Below are positions 5,063-27,497 of a stretch of DNA of 64,000 bases, one piece after another (the first letter of the stretch is position 1; every line of letters begins with the position of its first letter). Location of the stretch: the IMG/VR virus record IMGVR_UViG_3300024346_000007, one strand, 5' to 3'. The DNA is from a virus. The notes below the pieces were generated by a model. That model saw only the letters and a list, made by a program, of their open reading frames with translations, was not told the DNA's origin and searched no databases. A program made the position numbers and the translations under genes.

Positions 5063-5083
5063 TTTAGTTGGTTGGTTGTTTGT

Positions 5084-5115
5084 AAGGGGGCAGGAGAAAT
5101 CTTGTCCCCTTTTTT
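5084..5115 (+). terminator. Rho-independent terminator
   Basis: AGGGGGCAGGA-GAAA-TCTTGTCCCCT + T-run. Confidence 0.8.
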
Positions 5116-5136
5116 ATTACATTTAAAACATTAGTT

Positions 5137-5733
5137 ATGGAAGCCATAGAAACAAAACGTATAGGAAAATACGAGATAGAAATTATCCCAGACAGTAATC
5201 CAGAATCTCCAAGGGAATGGGACAACCTAGGTACAATGGTTTGTCAGCACCGTAGGTATAACCTAGGAGATAAGCATGACTACGATCTCAATGATTGTAA
5301 CAGTTGGTTAGATGTACAGAAAGAATTAGGATACCCTCCAATCATACTCAATCTATATCTGTATGACCATAGCGGTATTACAATGAGCTGCAAACCTTTT
5401 GGTGACAAGTGGGATAGCGGACAAGTAGGATTCATCTTTGCTACTAATGAGACTTTAGTTAAAGAGTATGGTAGAGTAGATGAGGAGGTCATTAATAAAG
5501 CACAGTCAGTATTAGAAGGAGAGGTTAAAACCTACGATCAATATCTTACAGGAGATGTATACGGATACAAGATATATGAACTATCTACTTGTGATCATGG
5601 TCATGAACATATGGAAGAAGTAGATTCTTGCTGGGGATATTATGGGGAGGATAGTTGTATGGAAGAGGCAGAGTCTATTGTTAATTCACTAATAAAACAC
5701 GATCAAGATGTTGAACAAACTCGTTATCCCTGA
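5137..5733 (+). CDS. conserved phage/MGE hypothetical protein
   Basis: PREWDNLG, LYLYDHSG, WDSGQVG, GDVYG, DSCWGYYG motifs. Confidence 0.7.
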   Translation: MEAIETKRIGKYEIEIIPDSNPESPREWDNLGTMVCQHRRYNLGDKHDYDLNDCNSWLDVQKELGYPPIILNLYLYDHSGITMSCKPFGDKWDSGQVGFIFATNETLVKEYGRVDEEVINKAQSVLEGEVKTYDQYLTGDVYGYKIYELSTCDHGHEHMEEVDSCWGYYGEDSCMEEAESIVNSLIKHDQDVEQTRYP

Positions 5734-26008: not shown

Positions 26009-26033
26009 GAAAGGGGGTAAAAACCCCCCTTCG
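26009..26033 (-). terminator. terminator downstream of tmRNA
   Basis: AAGGGGG...CCCCCTT stem followed by U-rich tail on minus strand. Confidence 0.7.
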
Positions 26034-26074
26034 TAATTAAACCTACACTAACTAAGTGGACCTAGTGGGATTCG

Positions 26075-26872
26075 CATTTGTATTCTTTTGTTAGATCCAC
26101 ATATTTATATAAAACATAAAAATGTTAAAATATAAACAAAATAGAAAGCTAACGGAGTTTGTCTGTGATTTTTGCAAATCTATAGCCACTAAGCCTACAA
26201 CAGAGTTGACCAGGAACTATAAACTTAACAGAAAAAACTTTTGTTCTAAAGTTTGTAGTTTAAAATATGGACATCTTGTTAGACCTAATATATCTAGATC
26301 AAATAGATATGACATATCAAAACATTCTGGAAATAGAGAAGACTTGTTTACTCCTTACAAATACACTTTTAATACTTGTAAAAGGAGATTTAAAGAATTT
26401 TCTATAACAATTGAAGATCTAAAAAATCAATGGGAATTACAAAAAGGCACTTGTCCTTATAGCAAAATGCTACTAGAACTTCCTGTCTATAATAAAAAAA
26501 CCCATCCATCTATTAGAGCTTCTTTAGATAGAGTTGATTCATCAAAAGGATATATTAAAGGAAATATACAATTTGTATCTACTTTAATAAATTTTATGAA
26601 ATCAAACCTATCTCATTATGAAACTTTAGATTTCATAGACAACCTCGTAAAGAACTACAACTCTTGTTACCAAGAGGATCAGACTATATCATCACCCGAT
26701 CTGGGTGCTGGACGCTAGTGCGGTTATTAAGAGACCTTTATCTCTCCGCTAGTCGTTGAACCTTCCTAAAGTGTACTTTAGGCTTGGCTGCTGATTGTCC
26801 TATGTTATAGGAGTTCCAGCAATTCATCCAGTTTTTAATCTAGTATTCCTACTAGATGGGTCCGATTCCACA
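26075..26872 (-). mobile_element. group I intron (798 nt) in the tmRNA T-loop
   Basis: P AAUUGCUGGAA, Q AAUCAGCAG, R GUUCAACGACUA, S GAUAUAGUCU; P3 CUGGAUG/CGUCCAG; IGS UCGGACCCAU; U.G at 5' splice site; terminal G. Confidence 0.92.
26122..26718 (+). CDS. intron-encoded HNH-like homing endonuclease, antisense to intron
   Basis: N-terminal CxxC..FCS..C Zn finger; QKG.CPYS, SLDRVDSSKGY..GNIQFV...N.MK. Confidence 0.85.
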   Translation: MLKYKQNRKLTEFVCDFCKSIATKPTTELTRNYKLNRKNFCSKVCSLKYGHLVRPNISRSNRYDISKHSGNREDLFTPYKYTFNTCKRRFKEFSITIEDLKNQWELQKGTCPYSKMLLELPVYNKKTHPSIRASLDRVDSSKGYIKGNIQFVSTLINFMKSNLSHYETLDFIDNLVKNYNSCYQEDQTISSPDLGAGR

Positions 26873-27099
26873 AACCCACGTCTTCGCAATGAACAATAAT
26901 ACCAGCATCTCACACGCTTAGTACTAACAATCAAGAGGGAGATCCCCCGTCATTTGCACCGTAGTTTTGATCTGCAAGCTGATCAGTAAGGGGATGTCCG
27001 GAGACAGCTAACCACCACCCCAGTCCTTATTTAAAGAGTCGATCGGGGAAACTCTATATTCCACTTTGTTTGAAGCGAGGTTGTAGACACCTCGGCGGA

Positions 27100-27171
27100 T
27101 TAAGCAAATGTTGCTTCATCGGCACCAACGAAGGCCATAAGGTCATCGAAGGTCATAGTTGACATCTCGTC
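27100..27171 (-). other. tmRNA tag reading frame (A)DEMSTMTFDDLMAFVGADEATFA*
   Basis: Resume codon GAC after AAUAAAU; ends GCU UAA. Confidence 0.7.
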
Positions 27172-27269
27172 ATTTATTCTTTCGTACAGATTTAAAGAGA
27201 ACTAGTACGGTGTCTCTGCGTGTGGTACTACCCTCCGATTACGAATCGATACCGGTTAGGCCCAGTTAT

Positions 27270-27497
27270 TTATAATTTAATGCTGCGTTTTTGTTGATAA
27301 GGATGATCAGCAGCGTATGCGCTGTCTTCTGCGGCTTGAGTTGAATCCAGAACATGTGCTGCAGAATCTAGTATTGGTTGTAAAGTATCTACACTACCGT
27401 CTGTACCTGATACATTGGTATCGATTGATGGTTCACTTGATCCACCACAAGAGATTGCAAACAAGGCTATTAAAATAATACTAAGTGCTTTTTTCAT
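27270..27497 (-). CDS. lipoprotein
   Basis: MKK + hydrophobic stretch + AISC lipobox. Confidence 0.75.
   Translation of the reverse strand: MKKALSIILIALFAISCGGSSEPSIDTNVSGTDGSVDTLQPILDSAAHVLDSTQAAEDSAYAADHPYQQKRSIKL

Follow-up and report, generated by a model that had tools for sequence, protein, structure and literature searches.

The window analysed here, a 64,000-nucleotide (nt) stretch of the IMG/VR virus record IMGVR_UViG_3300024346_000007, very probably carries a phage one-piece transfer-messenger RNA (tmRNA) gene that is split by a mobile, IA-like group I intron, which itself carries the antisense gene of an HNH-like homing endonuclease. That a phage tmRNA is interrupted in its T loop by a group I intron was the central claim of the original prediction, and it is borne out by Rfam searches, by ARAGORN after in-silico splicing, by naturally occurring alleles and by helix covariation. 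The locus is organized as follows:

26057–27263 (−): interrupted one-piece tmRNA gene (ssrA), from G1 to the discriminator A, 1207 nt.
26873–27263 (−): exon 1, 391 nt, starting with GGGCCUA and ending with GUGGGUU; it contains the acceptor 5′ strand GGGCCUA (27263–27257), the tag reading frame, the pseudoknot region and, at its 3′ end, the T-stem 5′ strand GUGGG (26879–26875) and the first two T-loop bases UU (26874–26873).
27100–27171 (−): tag reading frame (ARAGORN), with resume codon GAC, 23 codons (DEMSTMTFDDLMAFVGADEATFA) and a UAA stop.
26075–26872 (−): group I intron, 798 nt, between T-loop nucleotides 2 and 3 (UU^CGAAU), with G as its last base.
26057–26074 (−): exon 2, 18 nt, CGAAU-CCCAC-UAGGUCC-A, which comprises the T-loop CGAAU (26074–26070), the T-stem 3′ strand CCCAC (26069–26065), the acceptor 3′ strand UAGGUCC (26064–26058) and the discriminator A (26057).
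26122–26718 (+): endonuclease-like open reading frame (ORF), 198 amino acids, antisense to the intron, between P9 and the 3′ splice site.
26009–26032 (−): intrinsic-terminator-like hairpin (10 pairs, of which 6 are G-C) with a U run after it, located 25 nt beyond the tmRNA 3′ end.

Removal of 26075–26872 restores GUGGG-UU^CGAAU-CCCAC-UAGGUCC-A, exactly as proposed. The joined exons form a canonical T arm (GUGGG-UUCGAAU-CCCAC) and a 7-bp acceptor stem (GGGCCUA/UAGGUCC) with the G3·U70 alanine identity pair; the CCA end is incompletely encoded (…UCCA-C-UU). Standard tmRNA finders miss the split gene, as had been anticipated: a tRNA-Met was the sole ARAGORN call in the raw window, with no tmRNA, and the unspliced region scored 5.9 bits on the Rfam tmRNA model RF00023. 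Once exactly 26872–26075 was deleted in silico, ARAGORN called a 410-nt tmRNA with GAC as the resume codon. In a control comprising the 483 possible 798-nt deletions over 26020–27300, a call was made at the true site ±2 nt only.

Natural alleles carry exactly the junction that had been predicted. Syntenic phage contigs were retrieved with an 18-nt exon 2 pattern and a 19-nt 5′-domain pattern, and the intron-less alleles among them, L009 (on the same contig as L020) and L019, read GUGGGUU|CGAAUCCCAC at this position. Since U follows the 5′ splice site and G precedes exon 2, the junction is unique and its boundaries cannot slide. The exons of the window are 95–98% identical to the intron-less alleles (98% for exon 1 against L009, with exon 2 identical). 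On RF00023, L009 reaches 67.4 bits (cut-off 47) across the whole model, positions 1–374; its tRNA-like domain aligns to the model with high posterior probabilities, and the consensus resume codon falls on GAC in this alignment. Inside the tag frame, the window and L008, an intron-bearing sister phage, show three differences, all synonymous or stop-to-stop. The tag frame is thus conserved with synonymous changes and is therefore probably translated.

The intron scores 97.3 bits on the Rfam group I model RF00028 (cut-off 50, E = 7e-24), with the match at 26883–26660 (−) covering the full model (positions 1–253). Its helices were placed from the Rfam alignment, from a consensus fold built on seven homologues and manually, with the coordinates of the P4 5′ strand and the P10 guide derived by hand from the helix table:

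26661–26879 (−): ribozyme core P1–P9, from the RF00028 match and the consensus fold.
26879–26871/26864–26856 (−): P1, GUGGGUUUG/CGGACCCAU.
26865–26863 (−): P10 guide UCG, for which a 3-bp pairing with exon 2 CGA is possible.
26855–26840 (−): P2.
26831–26825/26714–26708 (−): P3.
26821–26816/26794–26789 (−): P4.
26812–26798 (−): P5.
26788–26760 (−): P6.
26756–26750/26686–26681 (−): P7, a pseudoknot, identified by hand.
26749–26720 (−): P7.1 hairpin, between P7 and P3′.
26707–26693 (−): P8.
26676–26661 (−): P9.

All the parts listed in the original prediction, namely P1 with its U·G pair, P10, P2–P9, an extra P7.1-type stem and the terminal G, are present. P1 has the form GUGGGUU(UG)/(CG)GACCCAU, with the splice site after the U·G pair in which the −1 U pairs with G. 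The P10 guide UCG is present in five homologues and reads UUG in L137. Compensatory changes on both sides occur in 30 of the 56 pairs of the consensus fold across the seven homologues. The inner stem of P7.1 covaries in this fold, and differences in its outer stem were judged by eye; no second helix (P7.2) was identified there. The P7.1 hairpin would fit the label IA-like for this intron. Over about 160 nt, the core is 75% identical to the intron in psbA of S-PM2.

The syntenic phage lineages carry three states of the locus:

Empty site: L009/L020 and L019.
Intron with endonuclease gene: the window and L132–L134, three contigs with the same 798-nt intron.
Intron with the endonuclease gene removed by a deletion of about 520 bp: L008, a deletion derivative because the last ~32 endonuclease codons remain.

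Together, these alleles represent the stages through which a homing cycle would be expected to pass. Compared with the window, L132 and L008 are 99.1% identical in the intron core, about 95% in exon 1 and about 80% in the flanks, while the endonuclease region is 97.6% identical to the window among the intron-bearing lineages. The intron is far more conserved than its surroundings, which is the opposite of vertical descent and is the pattern that recent lateral spread by homing would give, presumably initiated by cleavage of the empty site. A candidate co-conversion tract was rejected: at a site about 25 nt upstream of the insertion, where intron-less L009 reads GGTGCTATTG, both the window and L008 read GGTATTATTG, and the intron-bearing L132 has the L009 version.

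The 585 nt between P9 and the terminal G contain no minus-strand ORF of at least 40 amino acids; the endonuclease-like ORF runs on the opposite strand, and its last ~20 codons overlap P9, P7′, P8 and P3′. Its PHROG matches are phrog_3322, an endonuclease family (E = 6.6e-23), phrog_3118, an HNH endonuclease family (8.7e-13), and endonuclease VII (8e-8). About 94 homologues were found, none of which has a Pfam domain. The residues invariant in the family are an N-terminal Cys pair in a Cys-rich segment, W-x2-Q-x-G-x-C-x-Y, and A-S-L-D-R-x-D-S-x-K-G-Y…N…N..K. A single-sequence search of the PDB returned nothing, and a profile search returned weak matches to Cas9-HNH and PacI (E 0.2–0.9). The nucleases weakly matched by profile and fold searches are almost only of the HNH type (Cas9 HNH, PacI, Gme HNH, T4 endonuclease VII). 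We read the ORF as a putative HNH-superfamily-like homing endonuclease, whose chemistry is a prediction.

The peptide DQTISS occurs close to the C-terminus of at least 10 of the 24 homologues aligned, and it is what the invariant ribozyme motif GAUGAUAUAGUC encodes when translated antisense. Because the peptide mirrors this motif, the antisense overlap with the ribozyme is a trait of the family. The seven homologues whose context was examined all lie in or beside tRNA or tmRNA genes. Two of the homologues are free-standing: one (L138:1584–2555) is 70 nt downstream of an uninterrupted tmRNA (64 bits on the Rfam model), and the other (L136:2001–2576) is located on a 374-kb contig within an array of tRNA genes. 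These two placements suggest that T-arm-like DNA is the target of the family. This endonuclease family is unclassified, and a Pfam-based endonuclease survey such as that of the 2025 tmRNA database paper (PMC11915505) would have missed its members.

The virus record of which the window is part is 78 kb long and is estimated by CheckV to be 46% complete. Genes for DNA polymerase A (PolA), ribonucleotide reductase (RNR), DnaB, GroEL and an exonuclease are spread over the two sides of the tmRNA gene, together with several PHROG families of unknown function. Five lineages sampled independently (the window, L132–L134, L008, L009/L020 and L019) are syntenic here and have the tmRNA at this position; their flanks are 75–87% identical to the window. 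We considered and rejected a prophage boundary at this locus, since phage families lie on both sides, no integrase family was matched among the flanking ORFs tested, and the 18-nt tmRNA 3′-end pattern occurs once in the locus, with no duplicated 3′ end. A Shine-Dalgarno-like motif precedes 1 of the 40 ORFs of at least 150 amino acids, their leaders are A-rich, and the G+C content of the window is 35.6%. The near-absence of Shine-Dalgarno-like motifs presumably fits a Bacteroidota-type host, and the window is probably part of a large phage genome with a host from this phylum. Elsewhere in the window, a tRNA-like element at 22921–22998 (−), with 31 bits against the Rfam tRNA model (cut-off 29) but no ARAGORN call, lies about 300 nt upstream of a normal tRNA-Met at 22543–22616 (−).

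Intron-split tmRNA proves to be common in phages; it extends beyond the window and its sister phages, and includes the permuted tmRNAs of crAss-like phages. Relatives of the endonuclease led to phage-like contigs in which different tmRNAs are split at the same subsite:

L135, 123-kb contig: 794-nt intron, tag AKTKSQRVAEGEAILASIFDEVAVAA (read by eye).
L137, 80-kb contig: 900-nt intron, tag GETKVITMVARTSSLRIAA.
L149/L166, 59–78-kb contigs: 868-nt intron, tag GKTTNNLNGNDVTIFRIAA.
L021 (crAss-like phage cr6_1), 2390–3600: permuted tmRNA, with the T-arm/acceptor piece split by an intron with an antisense endonuclease; likewise L022–L038.

ARAGORN made no call on in-silico spliced L135 or L165. A P1 pattern retrieved 17 further viral contigs (mostly of 50–100 kb), and the same position of the endonuclease gene recurs in more than 20 phage contigs and several tmRNA lineages.

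In the crAss-like phage cr6_1 (NC_055894.1), the locus at 38.4–39.4 kb is annotated in GenBank only as 'endonuclease'. Its intron scores 96.7 bits on RF00028, and its antisense endonuclease is 38% identical to that of the window over the full length. The two loci thus share a homologous intron, a homologous antisense endonuclease and the same T-loop subsite, but the interrupted RNA of cr6_1 is a permuted (two-piece) tmRNA with A as the apparent last intron base, whereas that of the window is a one-piece tmRNA with G at this position. The 5′ piece GGGGCAUUAUGGUUUUGAC and the tag VRNDKSFVTDYTRIAA* are found about 200 nt downstream. No tmRNA was found in cr6_1 by ARAGORN or the Rfam tmRNA model, and ARAGORN made no call on the in-silico spliced locus in any of 12 junction variants; the permuted tmRNA was recognized by eye and by comparison with intron-less alleles. 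When L021:3262–3271 and L022–L038 are compared with 93 intron-less alleles (L039–L118), the inserted segment ends in …UUAAGA. Either the last intron base of the crAss-like copies is A, or an 8-nt T loop remains after splicing; the pairing in P7 looks canonical. A gene that is permuted and also contains an intron is not among the gene forms listed for tmRNA (PMC11915505).

Further observations were made on phage tmRNAs and on the loci retrieved by these searches. Seven viral contigs of about 97 kb (L002, L003, L004, L006, L010, L011 and L013) carry a permuted tmRNA, for example at L010:5410–5175 (−), with the tag GDYNIVDYTHVA (ARAGORN), 45.7 bits on RF04321 (cut-off 47), and a T arm and acceptor stem identical to those of the window. 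In a separate set of 80 crAss-like loci, ARAGORN called permuted tmRNAs in 49, with tags such as GNTSYV[MT]DYTRL[VA]A. A match to the Rfam orphan family RAGATH-7-assoc (133 bits) at L021:2230–2351 stops 40 nt before the T arm of the cr6_1 tmRNA, on its upstream side, and may be part of the acceptor piece of the permuted phage tmRNA; a RAGATH-9 match lies at L021:948–1093. On the 421.7-kb viral contig L015, which has no tmRNA at this site, a related group I intron core interrupts a Hsp70/DnaK-like gene. The pattern match in L014, a 223-kb IMG/VR viral contig, proved to be a tRNA-Ala in a tRNA array; this array of 13 tRNA genes also contains a bacterial-type RNase P RNA at 5068–5413 (−) (RF00010, 139 bits). 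The matches in L005/L007/L012, L016 and L017/L018 were chance pattern matches on inspection.

Since 2002, tmRNA T loops have been known to harbor group I introns, and the 2025 tmRNA database contains 883 unique intron-form tmRNAs from 21 phyla with introns at four T-loop subsites (PMC11915505). The original prediction was right in naming such an intron from the T arm of Clostridium botulinum tmRNA, but its remark that these introns are otherwise rare does not agree with this number. The window intron is a member of the described class and occupies T-loop subsite 3 (between T-loop nucleotides 2 and 3), which is represented in the database by nine genomes, all from class Bacteroidia (PMC11915505). 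The splicing that restores the T arm is therefore already known. The database also contains 79 unique phage-encoded tmRNAs, for which no intron is mentioned (PMC11915505), and our literature searches found no paper reporting an intron in a phage tmRNA, in agreement with the original prediction.

Bacterial homologues were sought in species-representative genomes. The first pattern, in which P1 was combined with GGATGAATT, had no matches in 185,579 such genomes. A 28-base core-only pattern retrieved 41 loci, mostly tRNA anticodon-loop introns, and two chromosomal tmRNAs with subsite-3 introns became apparent. One, from a Bacteroidales metagenome-assembled genome (L160, 3.1-Mb contig), has a 278-nt intron and the tag GETNYALAA; the other, from Rhodocytophaga aerolata KACC 12507 (L179), has a 257-nt intron and the tag GEENYALAA. 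Neither intron contains an endonuclease gene, and ARAGORN detects both tmRNAs only after in-silico splicing; both probably fall into what the 2025 database calls 'Intron (3)'. In a rough tree built from about 250 nt, the window intron groups with L135 and then with L160, and phage and host copies are intermixed.

The window intron and the subsite-3 introns of Bacteroidia share the insertion point, the −1 U·G pair, the terminal G, the reconstitution of the T loop and a homologous ribozyme core. They differ in that the window copy resides in a phage genome, whereas the published ones are from class Bacteroidia (PMC11915505). Furthermore, the window intron is 798 nt long and its gene 1207 nt, as opposed to no intron above 700 bp and a longest gene of 1152 bp in that work, and its endonuclease gene, which runs antisense, lacks a Pfam match, while the Pfam-based screen of the database found only LAGLIDADG enzymes, in 4% of introns (PMC11915505). 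The tag of the window is also unlike the two Bacteroidota tags given above. The phage setting, the antisense endonuclease without a Pfam match, and the intron and gene lengths beyond the published maxima look new.

Other known systems are similar in part. Mobile group I introns of phages are exemplified by those of T4 td, nrdB and sunY and of the SPO1 and SP82 DNA polymerase genes, the latter with the HNH enzyme I-HmuI. Like the window intron, they are self-splicing elements in conserved genes that are spread by homing endonucleases, but they target protein genes, whereas the window intron targets the T loop of a non-coding RNA and its endonuclease gene lies antisense over the catalytic core. 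The intron of C. botulinum and other Bacillota tmRNAs is likewise a group I intron in the T loop, on the self-splicing of which function depends, but it is located at subsite 7 and is bacterial (PMC11915505). Other phage tmRNAs, including those of huge phages (PMC7162821), are phage-borne like that of the window and presumably also rely on a host or phage SmpB, but the window gene is split by an intron. Finally, the matches of the core pattern also include many gammaproteobacterial tRNA genes with a split anticodon loop; because the same pattern retrieved both, the ribozyme subfamily is shared with the bacterial tRNA anticodon-loop introns (bioRxiv 10.1101/2020.01.27.920355), while the host RNA and the loop differ.

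Combining these features, we propose the following model for the expression and spread of the split gene. The precursor would be transcribed from the minus strand and end at the terminator at 26032–26009. The ribozyme would fold, and an exogenous G would attack after the U·G pair of P1; P10 and the terminal G would then align exon 2, so that exon ligation rebuilds the T arm and the acceptor stem. The spliced RNA would be given its CCA end, charged with alanine via G3·U70 and bound by SmpB, presumed to be supplied by the host, after which trans-translation would add the 23-amino-acid tag. Ribosome rescue by this RNA would, as the original prediction reasoned, depend on splicing. The endonuclease, in turn, would cut the intron-less tmRNA T-arm DNA of co-infecting phages, and repair would copy the intron into the break.

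Several points weigh against this model. Splicing of the window precursor is deduced from its sequence features, and about 585 nt of antisense-ORF sequence separate P9 from the 3′ splice site, an insertion that might delay or disturb the choice of the 3′ splice site. The endonuclease gene would be transcribed antisense to the tmRNA precursor. The endonuclease ORF has no Pfam match below E 0.01, its family has no invariant His (the canonical first HNH His is absent, the motif being D-R-x-D), and its Foldseek matches, although HNH nucleases fill most of the top ranks, are all weak (E ≥ 0.05). The tag terminates in TFA and not in the usual LAA-type degron, and its resume codon encodes Asp. SmpB (PF01668) was not found in the 78-kb record, which is about 46% complete according to CheckV. 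With a sigma-70-like model, no promoter-like site stood out above the shuffled background, Bacteroidota-type promoters being outside the scope of the tool: the sequence has 7 sigma-70-like sites compared to 5.5 ± 2.7 in shuffles, and the sole site near the endonuclease start overlaps its ATG. A dedicated promoter for the tmRNA or endonuclease gene is unsupported, since such sites are no commoner than in shuffles.

Some of these points would also suit other explanations. The long distance from P9 to the terminal G, together with the intron-less alleles of sister phages, which make the intron dispensable, could mean that the intron is real but no longer splices efficiently, for instance owing to the 585-nt insertion, and that the window tmRNA is a pseudogene housing a selfish element. 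We regard this as quite unlikely, given that all core helices are intact, with 99% conservation of the core across three lineages, that the signals at the splice sites are canonical, and that the exons show no decay (95–98% identity to intron-less alleles and synonymous-only changes in the tag); nor would a recurrent endonuclease position in more than 20 phage contigs and several tmRNA lineages be expected if it killed the tmRNA gene each time. It is very unlikely, in our judgment, that the spliced RNA is something other than a normal rescue-and-degrade tmRNA and instead competes with the host tmRNA or adds a non-degron tag (…ATFA) that benefits the phage. Such a function would agree with a tag that is long, starts with Asp and ends in TFA rather than LAA, IAA or VAA, unlike GETNYALAA and GEENYALAA, and it has parallels in the tmRNA-like RNA of phage DS6A, which lacks a tag frame and inhibits host tmRNA (cited in PMC11915505), and in the sensing roles proposed for phage tmRNAs (PMC7162821). 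However, the synonymous changes in the tag frame point to its translation. Hydrophobic-Ala tag ends are, moreover, common, and the tags of Mycoplasma end in FA.

We give hardly any credence to the remaining explanation, according to which the tmRNA belongs to the host and lies at the edge of a prophage or genomic island, or the contig is a host-phage chimera, so that the gene would be an ordinary bacterial intron-form tmRNA. It draws on the frequent use of tmRNA genes as integration sites (PMC11915505) and on the presence of the same intron lineage in Bacteroidota chromosomes. Yet phage gene families flank the locus for tens of kilobases with no integrase match among the flanking ORFs tested, the 18-nt 3′-end pattern is found once in the locus without a duplicate, synteny holds in five phage lineages from independent samples, the tag is unlike those of bacterial Bacteroidota, and the junction pattern was matched in none of the 185,579 species-representative genomes. 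A phage one-piece tmRNA split by a mobile intron thus remains the reading that we strongly favor.

The split gene exposes a gap in annotation, as an intron-split phage tmRNA is unseen by ARAGORN and the Rfam tmRNA model. Because both failed on the window and on cr6_1, counts of phage translation genes that rely on them miss intron-split tmRNAs. The published tmRNA_intron covariance model, which has a detection threshold of bit score >150 (PMC11915505) and is absent from Rfam, might detect the window gene.

More speculatively, and with considerable doubt, the subsite-3 tmRNA intron could have both its reservoir and its vector in Bacteroidota phages. The endonuclease would use the T-arm DNA of ssrA, which is nearly universal, as its homing target, and one-piece, permuted (including crAss-like) and host ssrA genes would exchange the intron, of which the endonuclease-less copies in Bacteroidota would be phage-to-host relics; the enzyme might even cut the intron-less ssrA of the host, with the phage copy being immune. 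Independently of this scenario, the finding extends the range of the tmRNA T-loop intron class from bacteria to phages and provides a concrete case for studying the exchange of a selfish RNA element between phages and hosts in gut and environmental Bacteroidota.

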